Assembly (NCBI GenBank): GCA_031382605.1
Contig: JANMYZ010000162.1
Coordinates: 1-33,764 of the forward strand
DNA from: Planctomycetota bacterium
GTDB lineage: Bacteria > Planctomycetota > UBA11346
Length of the DNA stretch: 33,764 nucleotides
Direction: 5' to 3'
Of the stretch, positions 4,042-23,238 are shown piece by piece; position 1 is the stretch's first letter; every line of letters begins with the position of its first letter. A program made the position numbers and the translations under genes. The notes beneath the pieces are model-generated. The model did not search any database and was not told the DNA's origin. It saw only the letters and a program-made list of their open reading frames with translations.

Positions 4042-5091
4042 ATGTCTGAAATCGATTATCTTGGCATCGACCTTGGCACCAGCCGTACGTCGATCACTTC
4101 GTCCACCGGCGTCCGCACCACGGTGTGGTCCTATGTGGGTTATCCCAAGGATCACGTCGCCAAGAAGAAAATGGGTGGTCGTGAGATCATCTATGGCAAG
4201 GAGGCGCTCGATAATCGTATGGCATTGAACCTCTTCCGCCCACTCGCTGGTGGTTCGGTTAAGGTCAAGGGTGCGAAAGACACCGGCGAAACCCGGAAGG
4301 CAGTGAAAGATCTGCTCGAATACGTCGTCGCCCAGGCTAAGTCCGCCAAGGGCTCGACCATTTACGCCGTCATCGGTGCTCCTGCCGAAGCCAGCGTTGA
4401 AGGTAAGGCCACCATTCTTGATGCGGCTTCCAACTGCATCGACTCGGTGATCGTGACCTCCGAACCGTTTGCGGTCGCTTACGGTCTCGATTTCCTTGAC
4501 GATACCTTGGTGGTCGACATCGGCGCAGGTACCACCGATCTTTGCCGTGTTCACGGTAAAATGCCCGATCCGGAAGATCAGCGCACGCACACCATCGCTG
4601 GTGATGCGATTGATCAATTGCTGGCCAACTTGATCAAAGAAAAACATCCTGAGGCGCAGTTCTCCATCAACATGATCCGTGAGATCAAAGAACGCCATGC
4701 ATCCGTTTCGACGCGCATGGAAGAGGTGTTCGAGATGTTGCCTGTGGCCGGTAAGCCAACCAAGTTCAATCTGACGGACTTGGTTTACAAAGCTTGTTAC
4801 TCATTGGTTCCTCCTACCATCGCAGCGCTACAAGATTTGATTGCTACCTACGATCCGGAATTCCAAGCCAAGATGCGCGGCAACGTGTTGCTGGGCGGCG
4901 GCGGCTGTCGTATCCAAGGTCTCGGTCTCGCGATTGAGAAAGCCCTGGAAGAATACGGTGGCGGTAAGGTGAAGACGGTTGAAGAACCAGAATACGCTGG
5001 CTCGAACGGCGCGCTCAAAATCGCGTTGGACATGCCAGAAACGTTCTGGAAGGAATTTAAATCGATCAAGAGTGATGCCGCTAAGGGCTAG
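4042..5091 (+). CDS. MamK-family actin-like (ASHKA superfamily) protein
   Basis: The ATG at 4042 has an AGGAG 6 nt upstream. The protein shows full-length similarity to MamK as I remember it. Shared motifs are LGIDLGTS, VGYPKD, AVIGAPAEAS, SEPFAVAYGLD, VDIGAGTTDLC, PDPEDQ, KHPEAQ, DPEFQA and GGGGCRIQGL, with a C-terminal ...FW. The length of 349 aa also matches. Confidence 0.85.
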   Translation: MSEIDYLGIDLGTSRTSITSSTGVRTTVWSYVGYPKDHVAKKKMGGREIIYGKEALDNRMALNLFRPLAGGSVKVKGAKDTGETRKAVKDLLEYVVAQAKSAKGSTIYAVIGAPAEASVEGKATILDAASNCIDSVIVTSEPFAVAYGLDFLDDTLVVDIGAGTTDLCRVHGKMPDPEDQRTHTIAGDAIDQLLANLIKEKHPEAQFSINMIREIKERHASVSTRMEEVFEMLPVAGKPTKFNLTDLVYKACYSLVPPTIAALQDLIATYDPEFQAKMRGNVLLGGGGCRIQGLGLAIEKALEEYGGGKVKTVEEPEYAGSNGALKIALDMPETFWKEFKSIKSDAAKG

Positions 5092-5125: not shown

Positions 5126-5166
5126 AAACAACTCGACCCGCGCCATTGGCGCGGGTCGAGTTGTTT
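5126..5166. terminator. strong bidirectional hairpin between convergent operons
   Basis: A 19-bp perfect stem pairs aaacaactcgacccgcgcc (5126-5144) with ggcgcgggtcgagttgttt (5148-5166). It has a 3-nt loop, is flanked by T-rich sequence, and lies between gene ends at 5091 (+) and 5208 (-). Confidence 0.7.
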
Positions 5167-5207
5167 TATGATCGAACCAAAAGCGTTCAGCAGAAAACGG
5201 AAGTCGT

Positions 5208-6131
5208 TTATTTGCCTTCAGGATTTGGCGATGGTGCCACGGGGGCAGCCACCGTCGGCGCAGGAGCGGGAGCGGCCGGCGCAATCGCTGGCGTTCCCGC
5301 AATCGCTGGCGTTCCCGCAACAGGTGCGGGAATATTTTCGGTGACTGGCGGCACGACCGGCGATAATGTGGCAGGGCTTATGGGTGCTGGAGCGATCTTG
5401 CTGCGTTTGAGCGCCCAGTATTCGCTTTTGGCTACTTCCACAAGTCTCGCGGCATTGGTGTCGGTACGGCTGATGACGCCTTCGAGTTTTGCGATGGCGT
5501 CATCGACTTTGCCAAGCGCTATCAAGGATTGCGCGGCGCCTAAAATAGCGGCGATTTGACGGTCAGGGTATTTCGATCCAGCAGCACCTTCAATTTTAAG
5601 ATAGCTACTTTCTGCCTCTGCATGTTTGCCGCTTTGGGAAAGTACGGCCGCTTCACTGAGGCCAACGGCCAATTCTAAATCGGGATCAACGGCTTTCATC
5701 GCCCATGAGCGCGCTTTTTCGGCAGTGCTCTTGGCGTTAGTGAGATCGTTTTCGGTACCGCGATCTAAATGAATTTGGGTAATTTCGATATAGGAACGCG
5801 CGCGGTAATACGGTGTGACGAGTTCGTCGTCGGCAACCGCTGAAAATGATTTTGCTGCTTCATCCAACTTGCTTTTACGGGTGATCTGATCTTGTGATTG
5901 ATCCGCTTCCATGCGGGCGGTCATGGCGTCCAGAAAACGACTTGCGCTGGCGGCAATCGGAGTGTCGCGGAGGCGGCCGTGAATCACTACTGAAGCAACG
6001 ATAATGGCCACTAAGATCACCAGGATCAATCCAATCCATTTAGTGATTCGCTGTGCCACCGTTTCTAAGCGGTCGTAGATAGGATCTGAATAACTCGTGG
6101 TTGGACCAGGAAGGTCGGGCTGCTGAGCCAT
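5208..6131 (-). CDS. membrane-anchored TPR-like protein with Pro/Ala-rich C-terminal tail (YfgM-like topology)
   Basis: This 307-aa protein has one N-terminal TM helix (WIGLILVILVAIIVASVVI). It is followed by helical repeat-like sequence (e.g. AEAESSYLKIEGAAG..., ALGKVDDAIAKLEGVI) and a P/A-rich tail. Confidence 0.6.
   Translation of the reverse strand: MAQQPDLPGPTTSYSDPIYDRLETVAQRITKWIGLILVILVAIIVASVVIHGRLRDTPIAASASRFLDAMTARMEADQSQDQITRKSKLDEAAKSFSAVADDELVTPYYRARSYIEITQIHLDRGTENDLTNAKSTAEKARSWAMKAVDPDLELAVGLSEAAVLSQSGKHAEAESSYLKIEGAAGSKYPDRQIAAILGAAQSLIALGKVDDAIAKLEGVISRTDTNAARLVEVAKSEYWALKRSKIAPAPISPATLSPVVPPVTENIPAPVAGTPAIAGTPAIAPAAPAPAPTVAAPVAPSPNPEGK
5281..5316. repeat. perfect 2 x 18-bp tandem repeat inside the CDS
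   Basis: The unit gcaatcgctggcgttccc occurs at 5281-5298 and again at 5299-5316. It encodes AGTPAI-AGTPAI in the tail of the TPR-like protein. Confidence 0.9.
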
Positions 6132-7651: not shown

Positions 7652-10600
7652 TCACTGATGCGCCTGGATGTCAGCGGCATCCATACGCGCAGCGAGCTGT
7701 TGTCCAAGTGCGCCGACGAGTGGTTCACGGCAAAAGGTAATATGGTCGCCGGGTGATTCGATGAGCTTGATGCCATCTTTAGCCCATGACCTCCATTCCA
7801 TACGTGGGTCATCTTCAGGACGTTCTGAAAGGAAGGTGTCCTTGGCTAACACCAACGTCACGCGGCCGGGGAAAACTTTCGGCGCGAAGTCACGGTAGAT
7901 TTCAGGGCCGCCTTCACCGCGGAAAGTATCCAGTGTTCGTCGTCTCACATTGGTGATTCTCTGCCTCAGGTACGTCATTGCGGAGAGCGGTGAAGATTGA
8001 TTCCACATTTTCCCAAAATGGTACCGTACGCGGTCACTGAAGCGATTTTTATCACTGCGAAATGTTGGGTCTGGTGGATCGAGGAGCGCGAGAAAAGAAG
8101 TTCGCTCGCCTTGGCTTTCGAGAAGATTCGCGATGGCGAAGGCGACGGTAGCGCCGAAGCAATGGCCTCCGAGCTGGTATGGTCCAGTTGGTTGTACGCG
8201 CCGCATGGAAGCGACGCATTGAACGGCAATGTTGGCAAAAGTAATTTCTGTCGTTTTGCGCTCTGCAGGCCAATCCAATGCATAGACTGGACGGTCATCA
8301 CCCAGATGGCGTGCGACATCGAGAAAACCACCGATGAAAAAGAATGGCCGGCGTTTGCCCTTGGCCTGCACAGTGACCAATAGTGGATCAGCGATTGGGG
8401 TCGCGAATACGCCTCGTTGGTTGAGCCGTTGGGCAAGGCTTCGGAGTGTCCGAGCCTCAAATACATCGCGCAATTCCAAAGAGATTGGCGAAACGTGACT
8501 CCATTGCGCCATCAGCCGGCCAGCCAGCAGCGAGTGCCCACCGAGTGCAAAGAAATCATCGTTGGCGCTGACTTTTTCCACGCTCAGAAGTTTGGCCCAT
8601 AATTCGACGAGACGTTGTTCGGTATCGCCCATCGGTGGAGTATAGGTATTTTGATTCGCGATGAGCGCGGGCGCAGGCAAACGGTTGCGATCGACTTTGC
8701 CATTCGGTGAGAGCGGCAAGGCATCAATGGTAACTAAAGCTTCAGGCACCATGTAAGGAGCGAGTATTTTTCCGGTATGTGCGACGATCGCATCAAGATC
8801 GATCGTCATGGTTGGTTTGAGTACGACGTAAGCGACCAAACGCATGGCGACTTTGCGATCACCGCAGGCAGCAACGACGCAGGATTTTACTGCGGGATGC
8901 GTAGCGAGAGCGGCTTCGACTTCGCCAAGTTCGACGCGATAGCCACGAATTTTGACCTGATGGTCAATGCGTCCAAGAAACTCGATGGTGCCATCAGCTA
9001 AATGTCGACCGAGATCGCCGGTTCGATAGAGCCGTTTTCCGCTGCGCGGATGGGTGATAAAACGTTCCGCGGTGCGCTGTGGATCTTTCCAATAGCCAAG
9101 TGCTACGCCCACGCCGCCGATGGCAATTTCTCCAGGGATGAGCGGCGGGCACGGTTCCAGCGCGTCATCAAGAACGTGCATGGTTTGATTACGCAGAGGT
9201 CCACCGTACGGGACGCTGGGTGCACGCAGATTCAGACGATCGGTGGGATGCAGAATCGACCAGATCGATCCTTCGGTGGCGCCGCCAAGGGAAAAGACTT
9301 GGCAATGCGGAGCTAGGGCGCGCAAGCGTCCTGGGAGAGTCACCGCGATCCAGTCGCCGCTGAACATAGCTAAGCGTAGCGTTGCCAGCGCAGATACGTT
9401 ATCGACGAAAGGCAGCAGCATTTCCATTAATGCCGGCACAGTATCCCACATGGTTACTCGTTCGCTGGCCATCAGTTCGAGCCACGCAGGCGGATGACGA
9501 AGCGCGGTCCCGACCGGAAATATTGCCGCGCCGCCAGCAGCCAAAACGCCAAAGGCGTCGTACACCGACAGATCAAAGGTTGCCGAGGACAGTGCGAGTA
9601 CGCGATCCGTTACGGTCACAACAAAGCGATCATTGAGATCAATAATCGTGTTGACCACCGCACGATGTGAAATAACCACGCCTTTGGGTTTTCCAGTCGA
9701 TCCCGAGGTGTAAATAATGTACGCGGGATCATCAAGCGTTGCGGGACACGGCGGCAGAGTTGACTCACCATGTTTCAAATCAATTTTATCAAGGTCGATC
9801 AATTCGGCTGGAGTAGCACCGAGAACCGACGATTGCCCACGGTGTGTAATCAATATTTGACATCCAGCACTGGCAAGAATCCAGGCCAAGCGATCGGGCG
9901 GATGCGTAGGATCAAGCGGAACATAAGTGCCACCTGCCATCATTATGGCGAGAGCGCAAACCACACCGACGGGTCCGTGCTCAGCGAAAATGGCCACCGG
10001 AGTCGAGCGACTGACGCCACGTTCTTGGAGTATCCGTGCTAAGCGTGCCGCTTGTTGGCAAAGATCCTGATGTGTCAGGCGTGCGTCGCCACCAACCAGG
10101 GCCAAGGCATTGGGCGTGCGAAGGCTTTGCGCCCATAAGAGATCGTGCAGTCGCTCACCCAGGTTTGGATGAGTCCATTGCGTGGCGTTATAAGTGGTTT
10201 CTAAAAAGCTCTGCCATGCGGGCTCGGCCAATGTGATCTCTGCGAGACGTGCCTGAGGTTGTGCGATGAAGCGAGCAAGCGTGGTGGTCAATACGGCGAG
10301 TACTTGTTCTGCGAAAGCTGCGTCCCAGCGCGTCGCATCATAAATGAAATTGAGATTGAGTTCGTCGCCGCCATTGGCTTCTAGCGTCAGTGGCGTGTTG
10401 GGGCGCGAAATCACGCGTACCTGTCGGCGATTCCACTCGGCATTTCGGCTACGTAGCGAGGAAATGAAATCGGCTGATTCGAACATCAAGATGACATGAA
10501 AGAGCGGTGTGCCGAGCGGTACTTGGCTGTTGGACTGTACGGCGATTAAATTGTCTAACTCATGGTGAGCATGATCACGTTGTTCGGCTCGCAGTTTGGT

Positions 10601-11503
10601 AAGAAGTTCTCCAACGGTTTGCTGTGCGCTCAAACCAACGCAGAAAGGCAGGGTGTTCATGAGCAATCCGACCTGAGTCTCAGCCCCAGGTACGGGCGCA
10701 TGTCGGCAGGCGCGGACGTTGCCGAATGCGATGTGGTCTTCTCGCGCATAACGTCCGAGCGTCATCGCTAAGGCGGCTTGTACGCAATTGTTCAGCGTCG
10801 CGCCGTGTGCGGCTGCGACCGCGCGAAGAGCTGCCGTTTGTGTACGATCGAGTCGTTTCTGTACCTGGCCAAAAGCACCAGGAGTCACGTCTATTGGTGA
10901 GACGAATGGGGCCGGCAGCGGCGTTGGTGCGCGCAACGAATCGAGGCGTTGTCGCCAGAATGCGTGATCAATCTGAGATTCGTGTGCGCGAACATAGTGA
11001 GCAAAGGTTGAAAATTCGCATGGTGGTGGGCCAAGCGTCTGACCGTTGGCGAGTGCGAACCAATCATCCAAAACGATGAGGATGGAGCGACCATCAAGTA
11101 ATGCGTGAGGAAAGCTCCACACCATCGTCCAGGTTTCAGGATCGGTGCGTGCCACGATCAGACGATGTAATGGCGGAGTATTGGTATCGATTCCGGCGTG
11201 GCGATCGTTGGCTAAATAACGGTTGAGCTCGACCTCAGGATTGGCGCTCCAATCCACAATTGATGATGTAATAATCAGGCGCTCATCAATGACTTGGACC
11301 GGGCCCGCATCATCCCATCTGAAGTGACTTCGGAGCACGGGGTGACGATCAGCGACGGCACGAAATCCCTGAACAAGCTGATCGGGGTGGAGGTCGGTTG
11401 GGAAATTAACCACCACTTGCTCCAGATCAAAACCATGACCTGGGTTGAGCTGCTGATTGATAAGCATGCCCTCTTGGAGAGGGGTTGTTTGAAAATGACT
11501 CAT
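7652..11503 (-). CDS. non-ribosomal peptide synthetase, C-A-T-TE
   Basis: I trimmed the start to the ATG at 11501-11503 (MSHFQTTPLQEGML).
- C domain, ~10214-11491: motif PHALLDGRS.
- A domain, ~8669-10156: AYIIYTSGSTGKPKGV, FDLSVYD, SGDWI, SLGGATE, YRTGDLGR, KIRGYRVELGEVE, PNGKVDR.
- T domain, ~8420-8626: FFALGGHSLL.
- TE domain, ~7694-8371: elbow GGHCFG with the Cys codon at 8159-8161, plus LLDPPDP and SPGDHITF. Confidence 0.93.
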   Translation of the reverse strand: MSHFQTTPLQEGMLINQQLNPGHGFDLEQVVVNFPTDLHPDQLVQGFRAVADRHPVLRSHFRWDDAGPVQVIDERLIITSSIVDWSANPEVELNRYLANDRHAGIDTNTPPLHRLIVARTDPETWTMVWSFPHALLDGRSILIVLDDWFALANGQTLGPPPCEFSTFAHYVRAHESQIDHAFWRQRLDSLRAPTPLPAPFVSPIDVTPGAFGQVQKRLDRTQTAALRAVAAAHGATLNNCVQAALAMTLGRYAREDHIAFGNVRACRHAPVPGAETQVGLLMNTLPFCVGLSAQQTVGELLTKLRAEQRDHAHHELDNLIAVQSNSQVPLGTPLFHVILMFESADFISSLRSRNAEWNRRQVRVISRPNTPLTLEANGGDELNLNFIYDATRWDAAFAEQVLAVLTTTLARFIAQPQARLAEITLAEPAWQSFLETTYNATQWTHPNLGERLHDLLWAQSLRTPNALALVGGDARLTHQDLCQQAARLARILQERGVSRSTPVAIFAEHGPVGVVCALAIMMAGGTYVPLDPTHPPDRLAWILASAGCQILITHRGQSSVLGATPAELIDLDKIDLKHGESTLPPCPATLDDPAYIIYTSGSTGKPKGVVISHRAVVNTIIDLNDRFVVTVTDRVLALSSATFDLSVYDAFGVLAAGGAAIFPVGTALRHPPAWLELMASERVTMWDTVPALMEMLLPFVDNVSALATLRLAMFSGDWIAVTLPGRLRALAPHCQVFSLGGATEGSIWSILHPTDRLNLRAPSVPYGGPLRNQTMHVLDDALEPCPPLIPGEIAIGGVGVALGYWKDPQRTAERFITHPRSGKRLYRTGDLGRHLADGTIEFLGRIDHQVKIRGYRVELGEVEAALATHPAVKSCVVAACGDRKVAMRLVAYVVLKPTMTIDLDAIVAHTGKILAPYMVPEALVTIDALPLSPNGKVDRNRLPAPALIANQNTYTPPMGDTEQRLVELWAKLLSVEKVSANDDFFALGGHSLLAGRLMAQWSHVSPISLELRDVFEARTLRSLAQRLNQRGVFATPIADPLLVTVQAKGKRRPFFFIGGFLDVARHLGDDRPVYALDWPAERKTTEITFANIAVQCVASMRRVQPTGPYQLGGHCFGATVAFAIANLLESQGERTSFLALLDPPDPTFRSDKNRFSDRVRYHFGKMWNQSSPLSAMTYLRQRITNVRRRTLDTFRGEGGPEIYRDFAPKVFPGRVTLVLAKDTFLSERPEDDPRMEWRSWAKDGIKLIESPGDHITFCREPLVGALGQQLAARMDAADIQAHQ

Positions 11504-11767
11504 TGGGTGAGCATACCTTGTTTTGAGGCATTCACATATACGTGGTTGATGGCAGCGTTGGATAACATGGAAGTTTTTTAGCCGAAAGGGGACAAGTGTG
11601 CGATGTAACGATGTTTTGACCACTACATCAAGAGTGGCGAGAGGATGAGCCCTTGGATCCGTTTATGATCGTTTGCAAGTGAAGGCGCGCAGAGTGCGGC
11701 GAATCGCGAATTTTCCTGCCTCGATAATCGGTCATCAAACGTCAGTCGATGAATCACGGCAAGCAAA

Positions 11768-12667
11768 TCACGCATCGTAGAGCGAAGCGCGGCCCCGGTT
11801 GCGGCCACCAAGTATCTTCAAGAGCCTCTGGCTTCGCAGGAACGAACGATAACCCCAGACGAAAAATGGGTTGTATTTGTTCATGCCCATAGTGATTTCT
11901 TTGATCACCTCGTTCCAATTGGTGTGGTTGGCGAAATTCAGCGCGACCGAGATGCTCGGCCCCAATAATCGCGTCGTATGCCACCAACCGGTGGGCAGGA
12001 TGACAATCTCTCCGGGTTCCTGCACGAAACGCACGAATTTTGCCTGTGCCAGCAAGGGAAAGCGCGTCAGGTCGGGTTCGTAAATGTTGGTGATGCGTGA
12101 TATCCGGCCATCGGCGTAGAGGAATGGCGTCTGGTCCGGAGCGTAGATGGTGAATTCTTTTCGACCGTACAATTGACAGAGGGCGACGTGGCATCCGCCC
12201 CAATCGTAATGCAGCTCGTTCAAACGCGTACCAAACCCACCGATGAAGAGCTCGGGATTGGCAGGGCCGTTCAGCCCATAGTTCACTGAACGCAGGAGGT
12301 ATTTTCCACGCAGCCAATTGGGGAAGACATACGGGATGAACGGATCGATATCGGTTCGCACCGCCGATGGCATGTTCCGAATAAAATGATCTTTCAGGTA
12401 CAGGCACGGATTGGTTGGCGTTGAAGCTATCACCTTGGGCAGGAATTCCCCCAGGGTCGTCTCTTCACCACCGACCACGATTTTTTCCGTGGGATAATGT
12501 GCGAGGAAAAATTCCGGAGTCCATTTTCCGAGCGCGGCCCAGGAATCGAGTGCTCCCGTGATTACTACGGGCACGTGTGGAGCCAGATAATCGCGGAGGT
12601 ATTCGTCGTAGGGAAGACGGTCACGGCGTACGACCGTTGCGGTTGCGCTGATATCCATGGTGGTCAT
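11768..12667 (-). CDS. JmjC / cupin-8 family Fe(II)/2-oxoglutarate-dependent oxygenase (putative tailoring hydroxylase)
   Basis: The 299-aa protein has the facial-triad layout LHYD (H-x-D) ... PTGWWHTT, followed by ISVALNF, which is typical of JmjC/FIH-like cupins. Its ATG (12665-12667) shares one base with the TAA stop of the megasynthase (TAATG). Confidence 0.8.
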   Translation of the reverse strand: MTTMDISATATVVRRDRLPYDEYLRDYLAPHVPVVITGALDSWAALGKWTPEFFLAHYPTEKIVVGGEETTLGEFLPKVIASTPTNPCLYLKDHFIRNMPSAVRTDIDPFIPYVFPNWLRGKYLLRSVNYGLNGPANPELFIGGFGTRLNELHYDWGGCHVALCQLYGRKEFTIYAPDQTPFLYADGRISRITNIYEPDLTRFPLLAQAKFVRFVQEPGEIVILPTGWWHTTRLLGPSISVALNFANHTNWNEVIKEITMGMNKYNPFFVWGYRSFLRSQRLLKILGGRNRGRASLYDA

Positions 12668-15600
12668 TACGGCGTCGCCTTTGCCAGGGTGAGACTTGGG
12701 TCCTGGCTGGGTTTTGTCGTGCCCTGATCAAGACAGCGCCGCAAGAGACCGCCAAGAATACGGACTCCAGGCTCACGGCAGAAAGTCACGTGATCACCGG
12801 GCGATTCATGAATGACCACGCCGTCCGTGCTCCATTGGCGCCACATCAGGCGGGGATCGCGTTCAGGGGTCACGGCCAGGTAGGAGTCCTTGGCCAGCAG
12901 CAGCGTCACTTGCCCCTGGAAGTGCGATGGCTCGAAATCGCGGTAAAGATCATCATCCCCACCATTGAGCAGGCTGCCCGCCATGTGGTTGCTCATATTG
13001 CGCAAACGTGCCCAGCTATAGCTCACCAGACCAAGAGGCCCCTGTTTGGTCAGTTGACGGAGATGGAACCAGACACGATCACGCCAGCGCGGTTTGATTG
13101 CGCACTGGGGCGGATCCGGTGGTTCCATCAGTGCCAGCAGAGCAACCTCTTCGCCAGCCTGCTGGAGTCGAACGGCGATGGAGAAGGCGACGACTGCGCC
13201 GTAACAGTGACCACCGAGCAGATAGGGGCCTCGCGGTTGGATCCGCTTCATGGCGGTGATGCAGCGTTTGGCGATGCTCGCGAAAGTCTCATCGCCTTTC
13301 GTATGTTCCGGACAATCAAGCCCGTAAAAAGGTTGGTCGGGGCCCACATGGCGGGCGATGTCGAGGAAACCGCCGATAAAGAAAAAAGGCGTGCGAGTCC
13401 CCACGGTCTGCAATGGCTGTAGAAGCGTGTCCGAAGGCAGTTTCTCAGGGTTACCACCAGCCAATTCCTGGGCTAGTTCTGCGATGGTCGGATGCGCGAA
13501 AATAGTCGTGAGCGGGACCTTGCGACCAAAGCTCGCCTCTAAACGCAGCGCCAGTTTCATCGCCAGCAGGGAATGCCCGCCCAGGGCGAAGAAATCGTCC
13601 GTGGTGTTGATGGCGACACCGGGGAACAATGCGCGCCATTGCTCTGCGATCTGTTCTTCGGTACCTGCCCTGGGTGGAACGGTTGGCGTTGCCTGGGTCG
13701 TCTGTGCCGGAACTGGAGCAGGAAGTGCCTTGCGATCAATCTTGCCGTTCGGGGTGAGTGGGAGCTCACCGAGGATGATGATCGCGGAGGGCACCATGTA
13801 GATTGGCAACAAACCGCGCAGATGACGACGCAGGTCGGCGGCCGAGGCCTCCGTCCCGCGATGCAAGGCGACATAGGCGATGAGGTTGGCGTCCGCCTGC
13901 CCAGCCGTGCGCAGGGCTACGACCACCCGTTGAGATATCGCCGGATGGCTGGCGAGTGCGACTTCGATGTCTCCCAGTTCGATGCGGAATCCTCGGATCT
14001 TGACCTGGTGATCGCTGCGTCCGAGGTATTCGATGCGTCCATCCGTGTGGTAGCGACCGATGTCGCCCGTGCGGTAGAGTTGGCGTGATCCTCCCTGGGC
14101 GAACGGGTCGGGAATGAAACGGGCCGTGGTCTGCTCTGGAAGACCCACATAGCCATGGGCCAGGCCATCGCCGCCGATGTAGAGCTCGCCGGGCACGCCG
14201 ATCGGTACGGGACGCAGGCGTTGGTCCAGTAGGTGCAAGCGGGTGTTCGCTACCGGGGTGCCCATCAAGACTGCGCTGGTTCCGCGCTCCACGCGATCGA
14301 GCGACGAATAGACCGTGGTTTCGGTGGGGCCGTAGCCGTTCCACAGTTCGCCAGCACGTGCGAGCAACGCATCCGCCAGATCACGCGGGATGGCTTCACC
14401 GCCGCACCACAGGCGGATGCGGCCATCACCTTTCCAGCCGGCCTCCAACAACATGCGCATGGTCACGGGCGTGGCTTGGAAAATCGTCGCACGACTGCTG
14501 TCCAACAGTTCGATCAGTCGTCGTGGGTCAGCGGCGGCCTCGCGTTCTGCAAGGACGATGCGTGCACCCACCGACAACGGCAGCAGTAGTTCTGCCACAT
14601 GGATATCGAAGGACAGCGTGGTGATCGCCAGCAGGGTGTCGCGCGCCGTGATGCCCGGCCGTTCACGCATCGAGCTCAGCAGATTGACCACCGCACGGTG
14701 GGGCACCTGGACCCCTTTGGGGCGACCGGTGGAGCCGGAGGTAAACAGCAGGTAGGCGAGGTCCTCTGGTACGACAGTCACGCGCGGCGCTTCACCGTCC
14801 GGTAGGCGCTGCTCCCAACCCGAGTCCATCAGGACAGTGGTGGTCTCGTGCCGAGAGAACGGTGCCCACTCCGTGGTCTGGGTGATCACCAGCGCCGGAC
14901 GGGCGTCTTCGAGAATCTGGGTGATGCGATGGTCGGGATAACGGGAATCGAGCGGCACATAGCAGGCACCAGCCTTGAGCACTGCCAGCACAGCGATTGG
15001 GAGCGCCGTGGTGCGTGGTAGGCAGATTGCCACCGGTGCCGTCCGGCTGGCGCCACGGGCAACGAGCTGTGCCGCCAAGCGCGTCGAAAGTTGATCGAGC
15101 GCGCGGTAGGTAAGGCGCTCTTCGCCCGCCACCACCGCGATGGCCTCCGGGGTTGCCGCCGCCTGTTGGGCGATGAGGTCGTGAACCGCGCGGTCCTTGG
15201 GATATTCCCGCGCCGTCGCGTTCCAGGTTTCCAGAATCTGGGTGCGCTCTGGCGCAGACAGCAGTTCCAGATCGCCGATCATCCGCGTCGGATCACGGGC
15301 CGCGTCATCAGCTAACGTCAGAAAATGACCGAGCCATCGGCGGATGGTGCTCGGCTCGAACAAATCGCGATTGTAGTGACAACACAGAGTCAGGCCCTGA
15401 TCAGTTTCCATCAAATTGAAATCGATGTCGAAGACCACACCAGCCTTGGCGTTGAGCTCGACCGTGGAGCGCAATCCGGAAAGCCCAAGATCTTTGAAAC
15501 CCGCCCGGTCGAAGTTGAACAATGCGGAGAGCAGAGGTGGGCGTGCAGGATCACGCGGCAGGGTGAGCGATTCCAACAGGCGGCCGTAGGTGATGTCCGG

Positions 15601-18600
15601 ATGTTCCTGGGCATCGAGCACCGCATCACGGACCGAGCGCAGTGCCGTCGCGAAGGGCGTATTCGCCGTCATCGACAACCGCAGGGGCAGGAAGTGCACA
15701 CAGTGGCCCGCAAGGCGGTCGACGCCCATCAACAACTGGCCGGCGGAGGGGATACCGATCACCAGGTCATCCTGGTGGCTGAGGCGAGACATCAGCGCGG
15801 TGAATGCCGCAAGCATGCCGGCGAATACGGTTGCTCCGCTGCGGCCGCAGACCTGTTGCATGCGCCGGTAGGCCGTTGCGTCCACCAACAGGCGTTCGGT
15901 GGCACCAGCGAAGGTGCGCGACGGACGTCGCGGATGGTCGAGGGGCAGATCAAGGTCCGGTGGCGACTCTCTGAACAGCGACCGCCAATGATCAAGCGAC
16001 ACGCGCCCCTCGGGACCATCGCGGCGTGCACTCTGCCACGCGGCGTAGGCATGGTACGGCACCGCTGCCGGCAAGTTCAGCGGCAGTCCGGTGACCAGCG
16101 CGCTGTAACACTGGCCGAGTTCATTGATCACCACGGCGAACGACCAGCCATCACACACCAAGTGATGAGTGATCAGTATGAGCACGTGGCGTTCTGATCC
16201 CAGGCGCACGAGCGAAGCACGCAGAAGTGGTGCGCAGGTCAGATCGAAGGGCGTAGCGGTGAGGGCGGCCCGGTGTTGCTCCAAACGTTGTTGGTTGTCG
16301 CCACTGGCGAGATCCACCAGCGGCAGATCCACCGCTACCTGGGCGACGAAGCGCTGGCATTCCCCGTCGGCATCGAAGCGCGACCGCAGGGCTGGATGCC
16401 GGTCGACCACCTGCTGCAAAGCCAGACGCAAGCGCGCGTGATCGAGCGGTCCATCGAGATGGAGCAGCACACCATCGTTGAAGGCGACACTCGCTTCCGG
16501 CGACAACTGCGAGGCGACCCACAACTCGCGTTGCACCTCGGTGAGTGGCAGCTGCTCCGCTAACGGCATGACGATGCTGGAGGTGTCGTCGCTCGGGCTT
16601 GGCTGCGCTGCGACGATGGCCACGACGGCGGGAACGGATTCCGGTGAAGTCTTTTCCTGAGCGGGATCTGGTGTTGTGCCACTCGCGGGGAGGAAGCCGC
16701 CGTCCGTCAGTTCCTGCAGACTGCCTTCCACCGCACGGATGAAGAGGTCGATTTCAGCATCGCCATGAGCGGTGGTCAGGAAGCAGGGGAAACCTTCCCA
16801 GATATGGATGCCACGCAGGCGCAGCAAATAATGCAGCAGACTGAGCATGCGATGTTTTGGTGCGAAGGCGAAGTAGAAGACCGAACCGAAGCGCTGCACG
16901 AATGATGGAACGCCATACTTTTTGAACAGTCCGTTGAGCGCATCTACCAAGCGCGTCGTGCGGCGGTTGAGGGCTTCCTGCAATGCCGGGCCTTGTTCCT
17001 TGAGGTGCACCAAGCACGCCTTGGCCGCCGCCATCGCCAACGGATGACGTACGAAGGTGCCGGCAAAGAACGTGACACCGATCTCGGGGAAGGAGTCGTC
17101 ACCGAAGCGCCATTGGCCGCCGTCGAGGGCATCCATGAAGCGGTTGGTGCCGGCGAGTATGCCGATGGGATGACCACCGCCGATGACTTTACCGTAAGTT
17201 GCCAGATCGGCCTTTACGCCGAACACACCCTGCGCGCCACGTGGATGTACTCGGAAGCCGGTGATGACCTCGTCCATGATCATCGCCGTGCCGCTGGCGG
17301 CAGTTATGCGACGGACCTCGTGGAGGAATTCTTTCGGTTGGAGATCCGGATGGCGGCTCTGCACCGGCTCGATCAAGACAGCGGCGAGATCATCGGCGCG
17401 TGCGCGGATGATCTCCAACGCCTGCTGGCTGCCGTACTCCAGGATGATGATGTTGTCGACTTTGCCTTGCGGAATACCTGGGGCGATCGGTGCGGAACGT
17501 AGGTCGTTGCCACGGTGGTTAGGACGTACCAGTACTTCATCGAAGGTGCCGTGGTAGTCGCCCAAAAACGAGACGATCGTGCTGCGTCCGGTGACCGTGC
17601 GGGCCAAGCGCATGGCGGCCATCACCGCTTCCGAGCCGGTGTTGCAGAAAGTTGCGCGTTCCAGGCCGGTGAACTCACTGACAAGTTTGGCGACTTCGCC
17701 GGCGAGTGGGGTCTGTGGACCAACTTCGATTCCAGCACTGAGTTGTTTGGTCACCGCATCGTTGACGAAATCCGGGGAGTGACCGAACAGGCTCGAACCG
17801 AAACCGTTGAGGATGTCGATGTACTCGTTGCCGTCCACGTCCCACAGACGTGCGCCCTTCGAGCGCACCGCCACCAGTGGATACACCATCTCCTTCCACT
17901 GTTGACGGAATCCCGCAACCACGCGGGGATCTGCTAAATATTCACGATGATGTTGCGCTTGGCGTTTGGATTCCTTGGTCTTCGCGGTGTAACGCACGAT
18001 GAAAGCATCGAGCCAACGTTGTTGATGCTCGGTGAGTCCGCCCGTGGGCCCGCGGGTAATCGGCTTGTAGGGACCAAACGCTTTGAATTCACCGGGCGCG
18101 GCAGGTTGCGCGGCGGAGGCTTCCGCCGCGCTTGGCGCAGCTGCCATGCCAGCGGTGCCACCGCTGAGTTGAGCCATCTGTTTGGACAACTCAGCAAGCT
18201 GCCGCTGCATCTGGTCCAGCATCGGATTACCGGTCGTGGCAGCGGGAGCGTCAGCCGCGCTCACGCCAACAGTGGGCAGCAGCGCGGGAGCCGCATGGTG
18301 TTCCACATATTCAGCAAGGCGCGCAACCGTACCGAGCTCATCGAGCAAGTGACGGAAGCTGATCTTGATCTTGAAACGTTGCTGGAGTGCGAGCGCGAAT
18401 TGGGTGAGGAACAACGAATCAAAACCTAATTCGATAAAGCTGATAGCGGTATCGGTTGCGCGATGATCAGCGCCGGATTGTTCCGACACCAATTGGCGCA
18501 GCAGTTCGATCAGCGCCGTATGGCGATCGCCGCTGGTGGCAGGCGCTGCCGTCACGGTCGCTGCTGCGGTGGTGGCCTGGTTTGCTGTCAGATCGGCGGT

Positions 18601-21261
18601 TGTCGTTGCCGCGTCGATTGGCGGTGGCTCTACCCAGTAGCGGCTACGCTCAAACGGATAGGTCGGCAACGGCGTGCGCGCTGGGCGTGCGGGATGGAAC
18701 TTCGCCCAAGCGAGCGGGACACCGGCGAGCCACAAGCGCCCGGCGGCATCGGCTAGCTCAGCCGCGTCGCCTGGTGATTCGGTTTCGCCCGTGGTGGGCA
18801 AGGTCGCTACCACGGAACGTCGATCACTGGTGGGCAGACATTGACGCGCCAAACCAGCAAGCGTGCGACCAGGACCGACTTCGAGCAGTGCCAGGCGTTG
18901 ATCAGCGGTGATGGTCGCAACACCCGCAGCGAAGCGCACGGCTTCGCGCACGTGGCGTACCCAATACTGCGGATCGGTCGCCTGTGCCGTCGTGATCCAG
19001 GTGCCGGTTACGCCAGAGATGAACGGAATGGTCGGAGCGCTGAACTGAACATCACGTAGATGCTCGGCAAATGCTGGCAGCATGCCGTCCATCATTGCCG
19101 AGTGGAAGGCATGCGAGGTGGTCAGGTGGCGTGCGGCGATTCCGCGTCCGACGAGATCACTTTCAAAGGCGGCGATGGCCTCCGCTCCGCCTGCGATCAC
19201 GCAGGACGCGGGGCCGTTGCTGGCGGCGAGCGAGAGTGGTTTGCCGGCGATCAGTGGGAGCAGTTCCGCTTCGCCAAGTCGCACCGCCAACATTGCGCCG
19301 CCGGGCAGGGCCTGCACCAGTTTGCCACGCACCGCCACGGCACGCATGGCGGTGGCAAGGGGCATGACGCCAGCAAGGCAGGCAGCGACGTATTCGCCGA
19401 CGCTGTGGCCGATCATCGCGGCTGGAGTCACACCCCGTGCGAGCCACACCTGCGCCAGCGCATACGACGTGGCGAACAAGGCTGGCTGGGTGTATCGCGT
19501 CTGGATGAGATCGCTGGCGCGGGCGGGATCGAACAGCACGGCGCGCAGGTCTGGACATTCGTTGGCCACGGCAGCCAAACACTCATCCAGGGCAGCGCGG
19601 AATCGTGGCTCGTCGCGATAAAGTCCGGCAGTCATGCCGGCACGTTGCGCACCTTGGCCTGGGAAAAGGAAGGCCACTGGTGTGTCGTCAGCAGCACATT
19701 CTGCGGTCGGTACGGTGGTCCCATCACGCAGCCGTGCGCTGGCGCCAGCGGCATCGCGCGCCACCACCATCGCGCGGTGAGCGAACGTGCGGCGACCGGT
19801 CTGGAGCGTCCACGCCACATCGGCCAACGGGATGGTTGGAACGCTGTCGAGATGTTTGGCGAGTCGTTCTCGCATCGCTGCCAGTGCGGCGGGCGTACGC
19901 GCTGACAACACCAATACCTGCGGCGTATTGCTGGCGACAGGCGCCGTGGTCGGCGGTTGTTCGATGATCACGTGGGCGTTGGTGCCGCCGACGCCGAAGG
20001 AACTGACACCAGCGCGACGAGGTCCGCTGATCGCGGGCCACGGCGAACGCGTGGCGTTCACGCGGAAGGGCGTCTTGGTGAAATCGATCTTGGGATTGGG
20101 ACGACGGAAATGCAGGCTGGCCGGAATGACGCCGTGTTGGACGGCAAGCGCAGCTTTGATCAGTCCCGTGACGCCGGAAGCGACTTCTAGATGACCGAGG
20201 TTGGTCTTCACCGAACCAATGGCGCAATAATTCGTGGCTTCGGTAGTGGCACGGAAGGCCCGCGTCAACGCTTCGACTTCGATCGGATCACCGAGCGGCG
20301 TCGCGGTGCCGTGGGCCTCGACATAGCCAATGCTGTCAGCGGTAATGCCAGCAAGAGAGTGGGCGAGCGCGATGACCTCGGCCTGACGTTCAACGCTTGG
20401 CGCCATGTAACCAACTTTTTGCGCGCCATCGTTGTTGAGCGCCGCACTGCGGATCACAGCGACGATCCGATCACCATCCGCGAGGGCATCTTCCAAACGT
20501 TTGAGCGTTACCAACGCGACGCCGCTGCCGAACACCGTGCCCTGTGCGTCAGCATCGAAGGCGCGGCAGTGGCCATCGCCGGAAACCATGCCGCCTTCCA
20601 TGAAGTGGTAGCCGCGTTCCTGCGGGAAGGTGATCGACACGCCACCGGCCAAGGCCACGTCGCATTGGTAGGACAGCAGCGACTGGACCGCTTGCGTAAC
20701 CGCCACCAGCGACGTCGAGCACGCGGTCTGGAGCGTCATGCTGGGACCACTGAGGCCAAGTTTATAGCTGATGCGGGTGGTGAGGTAATCTTTGTCGTTA
20801 CCGAGCACCGTTGGGTAACTGCCAACCTGATAGTCGCAGGTCAGACGTTCGAGGAACGAACGATCACTGCTGAGATTGGCCAGCAAATACGTCGGGAAAC
20901 TCTGGCCGGCGTAAACCCCGATCGCGCCTGTGTATTGCCTGGGATCGCAACCCGCGTCTTCCAAGGCTTCCCAGGCACATTCCAGCAGTAAGCGATGCTG
21001 GGGGTCCATGAGTTCCGCTTCACGCGGCGTGATGCCGAAAAAGCCAGCGTCGAAGAGATCGGCTCCGGCGAGGACGCCGCGGGCGTTCACTTGCTCAGCA
21101 TCACCTGGATTGCGCACCTGATCCTGGGCGAATCGTGTTATGGACTCGATCCCAGCCAGAAGATTGGTCCACAATTCAGCAACCGAAGTCGCCCCAGGAA
21201 AGCGACCAGCCATGCCAATGATTGCCACTGCGGGGGCACTTATCTGTTCATTCATGTTCAT
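12667..21261 (-). CDS. hybrid type I PKS-NRPS megasynthase: KS-AT-ACP-aminotransferase-C-A-T-TE
   Basis: 2864 aa.
- KS, ~19957-21234: TACSTS Cys181, EAHGTATPLGD His316, KTNLGH His357.
- AT, ~18727-19680: GHSVGE Ser620, with HAFH 717-720 indicating a malonyl type.
- ACP, ~18292-18528: LGFDSL Ser949.
- Class-III PLP aminotransferase, ~16702-18039: CNTGSEAVMAAMRLAR, IMDEVITGFR, TYGKVIGGG Lys1358.
- C, ~15247-16569: HHLVCDGWS.
- A, ~13717-15189: LLFTSGSTGRPKGV, NGYGPTETT, YRTGDIGR, KIRGFRIELGDIE, PNGKIDR.
- T, ~13462-13665: FFALGGHSLL.
- TE, ~12727-13404: GGHCYG with the Cys2686 codon at 13204-13206, plus SPGDHVTF. Confidence 0.95.
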   Translation of the reverse strand: MNMNEQISAPAVAIIGMAGRFPGATSVAELWTNLLAGIESITRFAQDQVRNPGDAEQVNARGVLAGADLFDAGFFGITPREAELMDPQHRLLLECAWEALEDAGCDPRQYTGAIGVYAGQSFPTYLLANLSSDRSFLERLTCDYQVGSYPTVLGNDKDYLTTRISYKLGLSGPSMTLQTACSTSLVAVTQAVQSLLSYQCDVALAGGVSITFPQERGYHFMEGGMVSGDGHCRAFDADAQGTVFGSGVALVTLKRLEDALADGDRIVAVIRSAALNNDGAQKVGYMAPSVERQAEVIALAHSLAGITADSIGYVEAHGTATPLGDPIEVEALTRAFRATTEATNYCAIGSVKTNLGHLEVASGVTGLIKAALAVQHGVIPASLHFRRPNPKIDFTKTPFRVNATRSPWPAISGPRRAGVSSFGVGGTNAHVIIEQPPTTAPVASNTPQVLVLSARTPAALAAMRERLAKHLDSVPTIPLADVAWTLQTGRRTFAHRAMVVARDAAGASARLRDGTTVPTAECAADDTPVAFLFPGQGAQRAGMTAGLYRDEPRFRAALDECLAAVANECPDLRAVLFDPARASDLIQTRYTQPALFATSYALAQVWLARGVTPAAMIGHSVGEYVAACLAGVMPLATAMRAVAVRGKLVQALPGGAMLAVRLGEAELLPLIAGKPLSLAASNGPASCVIAGGAEAIAAFESDLVGRGIAARHLTTSHAFHSAMMDGMLPAFAEHLRDVQFSAPTIPFISGVTGTWITTAQATDPQYWVRHVREAVRFAAGVATITADQRLALLEVGPGRTLAGLARQCLPTSDRRSVVATLPTTGETESPGDAAELADAAGRLWLAGVPLAWAKFHPARPARTPLPTYPFERSRYWVEPPPIDAATTTADLTANQATTAAATVTAAPATSGDRHTALIELLRQLVSEQSGADHRATDTAISFIELGFDSLFLTQFALALQQRFKIKISFRHLLDELGTVARLAEYVEHHAAPALLPTVGVSAADAPAATTGNPMLDQMQRQLAELSKQMAQLSGGTAGMAAAPSAAEASAAQPAAPGEFKAFGPYKPITRGPTGGLTEHQQRWLDAFIVRYTAKTKESKRQAQHHREYLADPRVVAGFRQQWKEMVYPLVAVRSKGARLWDVDGNEYIDILNGFGSSLFGHSPDFVNDAVTKQLSAGIEVGPQTPLAGEVAKLVSEFTGLERATFCNTGSEAVMAAMRLARTVTGRSTIVSFLGDYHGTFDEVLVRPNHRGNDLRSAPIAPGIPQGKVDNIIILEYGSQQALEIIRARADDLAAVLIEPVQSRHPDLQPKEFLHEVRRITAASGTAMIMDEVITGFRVHPRGAQGVFGVKADLATYGKVIGGGHPIGILAGTNRFMDALDGGQWRFGDDSFPEIGVTFFAGTFVRHPLAMAAAKACLVHLKEQGPALQEALNRRTTRLVDALNGLFKKYGVPSFVQRFGSVFYFAFAPKHRMLSLLHYLLRLRGIHIWEGFPCFLTTAHGDAEIDLFIRAVEGSLQELTDGGFLPASGTTPDPAQEKTSPESVPAVVAIVAAQPSPSDDTSSIVMPLAEQLPLTEVQRELWVASQLSPEASVAFNDGVLLHLDGPLDHARLRLALQQVVDRHPALRSRFDADGECQRFVAQVAVDLPLVDLASGDNQQRLEQHRAALTATPFDLTCAPLLRASLVRLGSERHVLILITHHLVCDGWSFAVVINELGQCYSALVTGLPLNLPAAVPYHAYAAWQSARRDGPEGRVSLDHWRSLFRESPPDLDLPLDHPRRPSRTFAGATERLLVDATAYRRMQQVCGRSGATVFAGMLAAFTALMSRLSHQDDLVIGIPSAGQLLMGVDRLAGHCVHFLPLRLSMTANTPFATALRSVRDAVLDAQEHPDITYGRLLESLTLPRDPARPPLLSALFNFDRAGFKDLGLSGLRSTVELNAKAGVVFDIDFNLMETDQGLTLCCHYNRDLFEPSTIRRWLGHFLTLADDAARDPTRMIGDLELLSAPERTQILETWNATAREYPKDRAVHDLIAQQAAATPEAIAVVAGEERLTYRALDQLSTRLAAQLVARGASRTAPVAICLPRTTALPIAVLAVLKAGACYVPLDSRYPDHRITQILEDARPALVITQTTEWAPFSRHETTTVLMDSGWEQRLPDGEAPRVTVVPEDLAYLLFTSGSTGRPKGVQVPHRAVVNLLSSMRERPGITARDTLLAITTLSFDIHVAELLLPLSVGARIVLAEREAAADPRRLIELLDSSRATIFQATPVTMRMLLEAGWKGDGRIRLWCGGEAIPRDLADALLARAGELWNGYGPTETTVYSSLDRVERGTSAVLMGTPVANTRLHLLDQRLRPVPIGVPGELYIGGDGLAHGYVGLPEQTTARFIPDPFAQGGSRQLYRTGDIGRYHTDGRIEYLGRSDHQVKIRGFRIELGDIEVALASHPAISQRVVVALRTAGQADANLIAYVALHRGTEASAADLRRHLRGLLPIYMVPSAIIILGELPLTPNGKIDRKALPAPVPAQTTQATPTVPPRAGTEEQIAEQWRALFPGVAINTTDDFFALGGHSLLAMKLALRLEASFGRKVPLTTIFAHPTIAELAQELAGGNPEKLPSDTLLQPLQTVGTRTPFFFIGGFLDIARHVGPDQPFYGLDCPEHTKGDETFASIAKRCITAMKRIQPRGPYLLGGHCYGAVVAFSIAVRLQQAGEEVALLALMEPPDPPQCAIKPRWRDRVWFHLRQLTKQGPLGLVSYSWARLRNMSNHMAGSLLNGGDDDLYRDFEPSHFQGQVTLLLAKDSYLAVTPERDPRLMWRQWSTDGVVIHESPGDHVTFCREPGVRILGGLLRRCLDQGTTKPSQDPSLTLAKATP

Positions 21262-21312: not shown

Positions 21313-23238
21313 CTACCGAAGCCCTGGTTTGAACTGATTAGCGCGAGAACGCAATTGCTGTTGCTGACGAAGCAGAGCGTTTCGTTGCTGTATTCCACGT
21401 ACGGTGGCGCTTGCCGCGACCACCGACGCGGTGTCTGAGGCTAGGTTTTCGGCCAGGGATCGCACGGTGGGATGTTCGAACAGCAGGGTGATGGTCAACT
21501 CGCGACCCAACTCCCGACCGAGGCGTTCGTGTACCTGGGTCAGCAGCAATGACGTGCCACCCAGATCAAAGAAGTTGTCGTCGCGGCCGATCTCTGATTG
21601 CCGCAAAATCTCGCACCAAACCGCCACCAGACGACGTTCTAGATCGGTGGTCGGCGCTTGATAGGCAGCCGCCAATTGGGTGCGGTCAATGGCCACTGCC
21701 GGCAGCGCCCGGCGGTCCACCTTGCCGCTGGGAGTCAACGGCAGGCGCTCAAGTACCGCCACCGCAGAGGGCACCTGATAGTCCGCTAACGTCGCGGCGC
21801 ACCATGCGCGTAGGATGGCTGGAGTCGGATGAGCGCCTGGACGTGCCACGACGTAACCGATCAGACGGAGATCACCCGGAGCAAACTCGCGAGCGACTAC
21901 GGCGGCTTCGGCTACGGCCTCATGCCGGGCGAGAACGGCTTCGATTTCTCCAGGTTCAATGCGGAAACCACGGATCTTCACCTGATCGTCAGCACGACCA
22001 AGAAATTCGAGGTCACCGTTGGTATTGAGACGCGCAAGATCACCGGTGCGGTAGAGGCGTTCATCGACACCAGCGGGCGCAGCCGTGACAAAACGCTCTG
22101 CCGTCAAATCGTCACGTCCCAGGTAACCCTGCGCTAAGACCGGGCCGCCCACATACAGTTCGCCCGGCTCACCCTCAGCGACTGGGCGTTGATCGGCATC
22201 CAGTAGGTGGACGCGTGCGCCGGTGATCGGTTTTCCAATCGGCGGCAATTCAGGCCACAGAACGGAATCGCCGCTGAGGTCATGGCTGGTAACCACATGC
22301 GTTTCGCTCGGTCCATATTGGTTAACAAGCGTGCAGCCGGGAAGGCGCGCGAACCACGCACGCAACGCCGGAGTAATACGTAGGGTCTCGCCGGCGGTGA
22401 TGATTTCGCGCAGTGACCACGACAGCCCTGGTGCTTGAAATGCGCTCTCTGCCAATTGCTGCAAGGCGACGAACGGAAGGTAGAGTCGTTCGACCCGTTC
22501 CTGTGAAAGGAAACGCAACAACGCCGATGGGTCCCGCCGCAGGCGCTCGTTGATCAGCACCAGACAGCCGCCGGTAGTCCACGTGGCGAACAGTTCCTGA
22601 AAAGACACATCGAAACTGAGCGAAGCGAATTGCAGCGTCCGTCCTCCGGACTGCATGGGCGAAACACGGTTTTGCCACGCGATCAGATGAGCGAGTGGCC
22701 CATGCGGCATGGCGATGCCTTTGGGCCGGCCAGTCGAACCACTGGTGAAAATCACGTATGCTAGGTCTTCTGCAGAGGGTGCCTTTAGGGAAGACCACGG
22801 GACCGCATGCGAATGGTCATCATCGATAAAAATCTCGATAACGCCGAGTGCGCTTAACGAACCATGAAGTGCACGTTGCGTCAGTAAGACGCGCGCGCCG
22901 CAAGACTCCAACATGTAGGCACGGCGATCCTGTGGGTACGTTGGATCGATGGGGACATAAGCACCACCAGCCAGCAGCACGGCCAGCACGGCAATGACCG
23001 ATTCCGGGCTGCGCTCCGCGTGCAAGGCCACTCGCGCATTTCGCGTAATTCCGTGGTGATGCAAAATAGCAGCCAACTGCTCGGCACGCTGGTAGAGTGT
23101 GCGGTAAGTGATTTCCCCACCAACTCCAGCGAGCGCCGGCAGGTCAGCAAACGTTTCTACGCGAAGACGTACGTCCACAATCACGACGGCATCGGCCTCG
23201 GTTGTTTCAGGGGGCATGGTGCACGAGGGGTAGAACAA
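21313..23238 (-). CDS. stand-alone NRPS loading didomain, A-T
   Basis: 641 aa. The A-domain cores are AYVIFTSGSTGRPKGI, FDVSFQE, NQYGPSETHV, YRTGDLAR, KIRGFRIEPGEIE and PSGKVDR. The carrier domain is FFDLGGTSLLL, with the Ser codon at 21550-21552. The start could instead be Met8 (23217). Confidence 0.9.
   Translation of the reverse strand: MFYPSCTMPPETTEADAVVIVDVRLRVETFADLPALAGVGGEITYRTLYQRAEQLAAILHHHGITRNARVALHAERSPESVIAVLAVLLAGGAYVPIDPTYPQDRRAYMLESCGARVLLTQRALHGSLSALGVIEIFIDDDHSHAVPWSSLKAPSAEDLAYVIFTSGSTGRPKGIAMPHGPLAHLIAWQNRVSPMQSGGRTLQFASLSFDVSFQELFATWTTGGCLVLINERLRRDPSALLRFLSQERVERLYLPFVALQQLAESAFQAPGLSWSLREIITAGETLRITPALRAWFARLPGCTLVNQYGPSETHVVTSHDLSGDSVLWPELPPIGKPITGARVHLLDADQRPVAEGEPGELYVGGPVLAQGYLGRDDLTAERFVTAAPAGVDERLYRTGDLARLNTNGDLEFLGRADDQVKIRGFRIEPGEIEAVLARHEAVAEAAVVAREFAPGDLRLIGYVVARPGAHPTPAILRAWCAATLADYQVPSAVAVLERLPLTPSGKVDRRALPAVAIDRTQLAAAYQAPTTDLERRLVAVWCEILRQSEIGRDDNFFDLGGTSLLLTQVHERLGRELGRELTITLLFEHPTVRSLAENLASDTASVVAASATVRGIQQRNALLRQQQQLRSRANQFKPGLR

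Follow-up and report, generated by a model that had tools for sequence, protein, structure and literature searches.

Cysteine-type thioesterases (TEs), in which Cys takes the place of Ser at the nucleophile elbow, account for ~2% of known TEs (PMC13288461, 2026). In two of them, the TEs of ObiF1 and SulM, the catalytic Asp has moved to the loop after β7, and both group with type II TEs (RifR/RedJ-like) (PMC6668435, PMC11298585). In ObiF1, the canonical acid position is a Gly, and an acid introduced there blocked loading (PMC6668435), while SulM is characterized by a Gln-Cys-Asn motif, a last adenylation (A) domain that loads 2,3-diaminopropionate (Dap; code DVWEMNADDK), and a sulfotransferase (PMC11298585). 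AB3403 also has a Cys nucleophile and uses the acid that follows β6 (PMC11298585). In BulbE-TE (triad C961/D988/H1097) and MacB-TE (triad C89/D116/H218), Asp lies at C+27 after β6 (PMC11536411, PMC13288461); both enzymes require their Cys and release their products by aminolysis, namely indolylamide macrocyclization by BulbE-TE and macrolactamization by MacB-TE (PMC11536411, PMC13288461). Here, we describe two TEs encoded by the window, i.e., the whole 33,764-bp contig JANMYZ010000162.1 of an uncultured planctomycete, in which all genes of interest lie on the (−) strand. TE1 ends a hybrid polyketide synthase–nonribosomal peptide synthetase (PKS-NRPS) and TE2 ends a neighboring synthetase, which we call NRPS2. 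Sequence comparison and structure models assign both to the type I off-loading TEs, in a Cys-His-acid subclass that keeps its acid in the canonical place.

Analysis of the domain boundaries placed TE1 at residues 2613–2864 of the hybrid protein (12670–13425) and TE2 at residues 1041–1283 of NRPS2 (7655–8383). Both TEs are C-terminal and preceded by a PP-binding domain, and they scored 70.6 and 68.4 bits, respectively, against PF00975 (curated cutoff, 26.4 bits). On the (−) strand, the TE1 codons GGT GGT CAC TGT TAC GGC read GGHCYG, with nucleophile Cys2686 encoded by TGT (complement of 13204–13206), and the TE2 codons GGA GGC CAT TGC TTC GGC read GGHCFG, with Cys1115 encoded by TGC (complement of 8159–8161). 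In alignments, the Cys column of both TEs matched the Ser of GxSxG homologs (P0004, P0005, and P0011), and the TE2 Cys aligned with the catalytic Ser of EntF (GYSLGG) and the Cys of AB3403. The AlphaFold2 models (predicted local distance difference test scores of 87 for TE2 and 84 for TE1) showed an α/β-hydrolase topology for TE2 and, by DSSP, a strand-turn-helix elbow in each domain, consisting of strand 69–74, C75, and helix 76–90 in TE2 and of strand 68–73, C74, and helix 75–89 in TE1 (model numbering). Codons, EntF alignment, and models thus agree with the Cys-for-Ser replacement that an earlier reading of the sequence alone had reported at both elbows, and they confirm Cys as the predicted nucleophile of TE1 and TE2. 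The same reading had called the two TEs paralogs, which is borne out by their 49% identity and by the presence of all the shared motifs it had quoted. The identical Cys codon was seen in the independent assemblies of three related loci (L001, L005, and L006), and the more distant orthologs in L007 and L009 retain Cys through synonymous TGC/TGT changes; therefore, the residue is neither an error nor a recent accident.

We placed the remaining triad residues by the order of strands and helices in the models and by alignment. In both models, the acid directly follows β6 at position +27 from the nucleophile, and the His follows the last strand (β8). Specifically, the canonical acid of TE2 is Asp1142 (8078–8080), which is preceded by model strand 95–101 and matches the triad Asp of EntF and AB3403 in the alignment, and its His is His1254 in SPGDHIT (7742–7744). 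In TE1, the canonical acid position is taken by Glu2713 (13123–13125), and the His is His2824 in SPGDHVT (12790–12792). The canonical acid position and the TE2 His were each at least 90% conserved in a 55-sequence alignment, and Glu at the TE1 acid position recurred in three members of the same clade (P0139, P0152, and P0159). Structure prediction had been proposed as a check on the original assignment, and in both AlphaFold2 models it put Cys on the elbow, the acid after β6, and His after β8. The candidate residues named at the time hold for Asp1142 of TE2 and for both His (SPGDH), whereas in TE1 the acid is Glu2713 (LM-E-PPDP) and not Asp.

Next, we compared both TEs with those of known structure. 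A phmmer search of the PDB at E ≤ 10 retrieved AB3403, Vlm2, EntF, NocB, and Pks13, with AB3403 as the best match by sequence (E = 6.8e-13). Foldseek also ranked AB3403 first for both TE1 and TE2, and all of the top 50 fold matches were type I TEs. ObiF1 and SulM were absent from the phmmer PDB matches at E ≤ 10 and from the Foldseek top 50, so that, judged by these rankings, a grouping with type II TEs is not supported for either domain. Neither TE has the relocated acid of ObiF1 together with a vacant canonical site, which is occupied by Asp in TE2 and by Glu in TE1. In place of Gln-Cys-Asn, TE2 has His-Cys-Phe and TE1 has His-Cys-Tyr, the Dap code DVWEMNADDK is unlike the codes of NRPS2 (DLYDMSLIWK) and of the hybrid (DIAQWGGVYK), and no sulfotransferase gene was found in the window. 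The sequences and models thus show TE1 and TE2 as predicted canonical-triad Cys-TEs, a kind of enzyme that is already known. These results do not bear out the analogy with strained-ring formation by ObiF1 and SulM that had been drawn earlier. The accompanying list of characterized Cys-TEs, which named only these two enzymes, was incomplete in that AB3403, BulbE-TE, and MacB-TE were missing from it.

The closest of the described systems, AB3403 (ABBFA_003403 of Acinetobacter baumannii; PDB 4ZXH/4ZXI), shares with the enzymes described here a C-A-T-TE layout (condensation, adenylation, thiolation, and thioesterase domains), a Cys nucleophile (GGWCFGG), an Asp directly after β6, and the AKD and PGDH motifs. 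It differs in its low whole-domain identity (18–20% by Foldseek), in having Trp and not His before Cys, in its A code, and in its gammaproteobacterial origin. BulbE-TE (bulbiferamide) and MacB-TE/PmxB-TE (macolacin, polymyxin), compared by their published descriptions, also combine Cys, an acid at C+27 after β6, and His; however, they act on long peptides to give macrolactams of at least 15 atoms, whereas the chains predicted here are very short. ObiF1 (obafluorin β-lactone) and SulM (sulfazecin β-lactam) resemble TE1 and TE2 in carrying Cys in a GxCxG elbow within an NRPS termination module, and they differ in the acid after β7 and the type II TE grouping as well as in the Gly at the canonical site of ObiF1 and in the Gln-Cys-Asn motif, Dap-loading A domain, and sulfotransferase of SulM.

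We then explored how common Cys is among the relatives of these domains. A profile search run exhaustively over 1.84 billion cluster representatives gave, among the best 150 proteins, 193 TE domains, 93 of them with Cys and 90 with Ser. The query profile leans to Cys by 5.3 bits, and the Cys:Ser ratio was still ~1:1 after Cys matches had been penalized by that amount, which excludes an artifact of a Cys-bearing profile as the source of the ratio. Pure Cys and pure Ser clades alternated in a neighbor-joining tree, where TE1 and TE2 both fell into an all-Cys clade made up mostly of single-module C-A-T-TE proteins of ~1290 aa. The rarity that the sequence-only reading attributed to Cys-TEs therefore applies to the characterized enzymes (~2%) and not to the nearest TE clusters, where Cys and Ser are about equally frequent. 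A word-indexed homolog search with TE2 alone returned 11 matches. A mixed-alignment search drifted to stand-alone Ser hydrolases, often as fusions with polysaccharide deacetylases, and was rejected as a sample of NRPS TEs; all 119 proteins spanning the nucleophile column in it had Ser (119/119), and it served as alignment depth for structure prediction. Many of the neighbors carried tandem TEs within one protein, either Cys-Cys or Cys-Ser (e.g., P0134, P0136, P0137, and P0146), and P0132 was a C-T-TE protein without an A domain.

The hybrid gene (12667–21261; 2864 aa) encodes ketosynthase (KS), acyltransferase (AT), acyl carrier protein (ACP), aminotransferase, C, A, T, and TE domains by Pfam. 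Its translation contains the active-site motifs TACSTS, GHSVGE, and HAFHS, and the KS, AT (HAFH, malonyl-type), and carrier motifs are intact. Upstream lies a loader gene with A and T domains (21313–23238), and downstream a JmjC/Cupin_8 2-oxoglutarate oxygenase of 299 aa (11768–12667), which is the oxygenase gene previously noted between the two synthetases. Manual reading from motif anchors, a procedure validated on the canonical Cys code, supplied the A-domain codes, which are approximate; Stachelhaus codes derived from MAFFT alignments were discarded as misaligned for non-orthologous A domains (the hybrid then read DIAQGKGVYK). Read by hand, the loader code is DVQYIAQVVK (Pro-like), and its L011 ortholog has ..IAHVV as in the Pro code. 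Through the aminotransferase domain of the hybrid, the chain would acquire a free β-amine, as had been anticipated. The same order of KS-AT-ACP-aminotransferase-C-A-T, with a β-amino acyl chain joined to an amino acid, is found in the MycA/ItuA-type modules of mycosubtilin and iturin. The hybrid departs from them in starting from a Pro-like A-T starter instead of a fatty-acyl ligase, in terminating at a Cys-TE once a single amino acid has been added, and in its coupled JmjC gene.

Homologs of the JmjC protein (42–64% identical) adjoin hybrid orthologs at three loci that lack NRPS2 (L010, L011, and L012), with the loader or a further upstream gene visible in L011 and L012. In addition, the JmjC ATG overlaps the hybrid stop codon by one base (TAATG). 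Because of this adjacency without NRPS2 and this start/stop overlap, the putative hydroxylase belongs to the hybrid line. Its closest solved relatives are JMJD5, JMJD6, and FIH; JMJD5/FIH-like enzymes hydroxylate C3 of amino-acid residues. A route in which α-hydroxylation of a terminal Gly leads to an amide (as in myxothiazol) was set aside because the code of the last A domain differs among orthologous clusters and is Val-like in L010.

The hybrid orthologs end in three unrelated TE types, each bearing Cys. The motif is GGHC[FY]G for the window and L010 and GGFCIGG for both L005 and L011; L012 has the third type, a separate TubC_N-TE whose motif is GFCAGG. Their shared Cys is modest evidence, from sequence comparison, that the release step of the hybrid pathway may select for a thioester acyl-enzyme. 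The separate TE of L012 (8994–10004), which bears a TubC_N docking domain, combines its GFCAGG elbow with a Gly at the canonical acid position and lacks a His where PGDH usually stands (SCNGDNM), with P0007 and P0010 being similar; its active site may be non-canonical. Classification of this TE as ObiF-like was rejected, as its match to ObiF1 was weak (E = 1.5e-4) and the canonical His is lacking.

Comparison with the closest relatives revealed that a 2.2-kb segment (11505–13720), which runs from the end of the first T domain through TE1 and the JmjC gene into the intergenic region ahead of NRPS2, had no blastn match in L005 or L006, both of which are 99.3–99.4% identical to the window on either side. 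In its place, L005 and L006 carry a divergent T-TE(GGFCIGG)-JmjC cassette of the same content. The TE of this cassette gave no significant BLASTP match to the TE1 of the window, and the JmjC protein of this cassette type is moderately conserved (53% BLASTP identity for its cluster representative). To judge from these alignments, the segment is a release-plus-tailoring cassette that has been swapped naturally between near-identical strains. A third relative, L001, is a Planctomycetota metagenome-assembled genome (91–93% identical) that is missing most of the hybrid gene and the JmjC gene. Here, L001 9759–16209 was compared with window 8371–8478 and 11745–20470; the L001 KS is cut after ~265 aa, its NRPS2 (2344 aa) has an extra Gly-like C-A-T module ahead of the TE, and its two T-domain ends are nearly identical (MELRDVFEARTLRALALH.DQRSAPATP). 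This suggests recombination at the T-TE linker, with misassembly as a possible alternative.

NRPS2 (7652–11503; C-A-T-TE by Pfam, 1283 aa) starts at an ATG at 11503, in agreement with the gene calls of L005 and L006. Its A code, DLYDMSLIWK, is Cys-like with N278D relative to the canonical Cys code DLYNMSLIWK. A Dap specificity, at which N278D might hint by way of a cationic side chain, was rejected since the SulM code DVWEMNADDK does not resemble DLYDMSLIWK. The orthologs of NRPS2 in L007 (10001–13891) and L009 (10001–13912) are ~1290 aa long, have no other NRPS genes nearby, and always carry GGHCFG and the A code DLYNMSLIWK; the L009 ortholog lies near an MreB-like gene, as does NRPS2 in the window. 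Conversely, NRPS2 was absent from the L010, L011, and L012 loci. The GC content amounts to 62.3% for the hybrid, 60% for the loader, and 55% for both the JmjC gene and NRPS2 (contig as a whole, 56%), a contrast that fits separate histories of the two synthetase units. Since NRPS2 stands alone in L007 and L009, the hybrid and JmjC genes occur without NRPS2 in L010–L012, T-TE1-JmjC is swapped as a unit, and the GC content differs, comparative genomics shows what we read as two independent neighboring assembly lines, with TE1 ending one and TE2 the other.

In the mechanism we propose, the Pro-like loader would feed KS-AT-ACP, the β-keto product would be transaminated to a β-amino acyl chain, and the hybrid line would add one further amino acid before handing the chain to TE1; NRPS2 would work as a stand-alone C-A(Cys-like)-T-TE2 line. 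In each TE, the phosphopantetheine thioester would be transthioesterified onto the Cys thiolate, activated by His and Asp or Glu, and the resulting acyl-S-enzyme would be resolved by an amine. Two internal amines of the TE1 chain could do so: the β-amine, whose attack would yield a seven-membered 1,4-diazepane-2,5-dione, and the pyrrolidine nitrogen, which would close an eight-membered ring. With one more amino acid placed after the β-amino acid, neither ring would be a β-lactam. Relative to oxoesters, thioesters are strongly activated toward aminolysis but not toward hydrolysis (PMC11536411), and transthioesterification followed by amine attack is preferred on account of this selective activation; we infer that the enzymes retain the thioester intermediate since an amine is what releases the chain. 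Of the lactone- or lactam-forming release put forward earlier, the four-membered ring argued from ObiF1 and SulM does not hold up, whereas a lactam in the broad sense, formed by aminolysis, stays plausible. Taken as a whole, this explanation, with canonical-triad Cys-TEs, two lines, and an acyl-thioester released by an amine, is the one that we regard as reasonably likely.

Its main rival, which we rate as unlikely though a real contender, is plain hydrolysis, in which Cys would have been inherited without a special role and both TEs would release free linear acids. Such phylogenetic inertia would fit a residue that is clade-specific and as common as Ser in the nearest TE clusters; moreover, a change from Ser to Cys takes a single nucleotide, and thioester and oxoester intermediates hydrolyze alike (PMC11536411). 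However, every Cys-TE of known chemistry needs its Cys for non-hydrolytic release, and the Ser mutants hydrolyze (PMC6668435, PMC11536411, PMC13288461), while Cys is retained in each of the three unrelated TE types that end the orthologous hybrid lines. A further option keeps the Cys thioester and lets it be attacked, either by a β-hydroxyl that the JmjC enzyme would introduce or by the β-amine, to form a β-lactone or β-lactam in the manner of ObiF1 and SulM. We consider this improbable, even though the Cys nucleophile is present, a JMJD5/FIH-like hydroxylase is coupled to TE1, an Asp directly follows β7 in both TEs, and the Val-like last A domain of L010 makes a β-hydroxy C-terminal residue conceivable. 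The canonical acid site, at which ObiF1 has Gly and an added acid blocked loading (PMC6668435), is filled in both TEs, neither ObiF1 nor SulM was retrieved (E ≤ 10 by sequence; top 50 by fold), the Gln-Cys-Asn motif, Dap code, and sulfotransferase are wanting, and the β-amine would sit seven atoms away from the TE1 thioester carbonyl.

The two lines might also cooperate to build one joint molecule if either TE acted like the FrsA TE and transferred its acyl group to a hydroxyl or amine on the product of the other line. The termination modules are adjacent on the same strand, the C-A-T-TE layout of NRPS2 is that of FrsA and AB3403 (PMC7794379), free amines would be present on the hybrid product, and the modules are fused in L001; yet NRPS2 and hybrid-plus-JmjC orthologs were found in separate genomes and the GC content of the two genes differs, so that we give this joint product very little credence. 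Somewhat less remote than either a joint product or ring formation of the ObiF1/SulM type, and still doubtful, is the idea that the hybrid line needs a thioester acyl-enzyme for an unusual small or medium ring (a 1,4-diazepane-2,5-dione lactam or a β-lactone formed after JmjC action), with T-TE-JmjC as an exchangeable release cassette that sets the chemistry.

Several observations weigh against amine-dependent release by canonical-triad Cys-TEs in two separate lines. An Asp also directly follows β7 in both domains (LAKD; D1222 in TE2 and D2792 in TE1) and might serve as an alternative acid; the AKD motif is, however, common to AB3403, where the β6 acid nonetheless serves. Cys may be a mere lineage trait, in view of the alternation of Cys with Ser clades and of a Cys share of about one half among the neighbors, and the clade that includes AB3403 has no member of known product or activity. 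As for the building blocks, the A codes were read by hand, and the hybrid code DIAQWGGVYK fits no known specificity well. Finally, NRPS2 is fused to a second module in L001, a 91–93% identical relative; therefore, the two lines can recombine and might interact.

The genes flanking the two lines encode glycosyltransferases, β-helix proteins, an FHA protein, and an MreB-like protein. Between the MreB-like gene (4042–5091, [+] strand) and a convergent gene at 5208–6131 (− strand), we observed a stretch of ~41–43 bases (5126–5169) that matches relatives in both orientations and is therefore an inverted repeat, probably a bidirectional terminator.

Cys-type TEs are sought as biocatalysts for hard amide- and ring-forming releases, few have been characterized, and the closest solved one, AB3403, is without assigned chemistry. 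The locus described here adds two Cys-TEs from an uncultured Planctomycetota lineage, and the searches indicate that canonical-triad Cys-TEs form large unexplored clades in metagenomes. As a rule, Cys at the elbow is by itself no predictor of a β-lactone or β-lactam; where the acid lies has to be examined too. Near-identical strains that have exchanged a T-TE-hydroxylase cassette offer a ready natural example for engineering release steps. If the hybrid line did form an unusual ring through a thioester acyl-enzyme, this cassette would determine how the product is released in planctomycete strains sharing 99% identity elsewhere.

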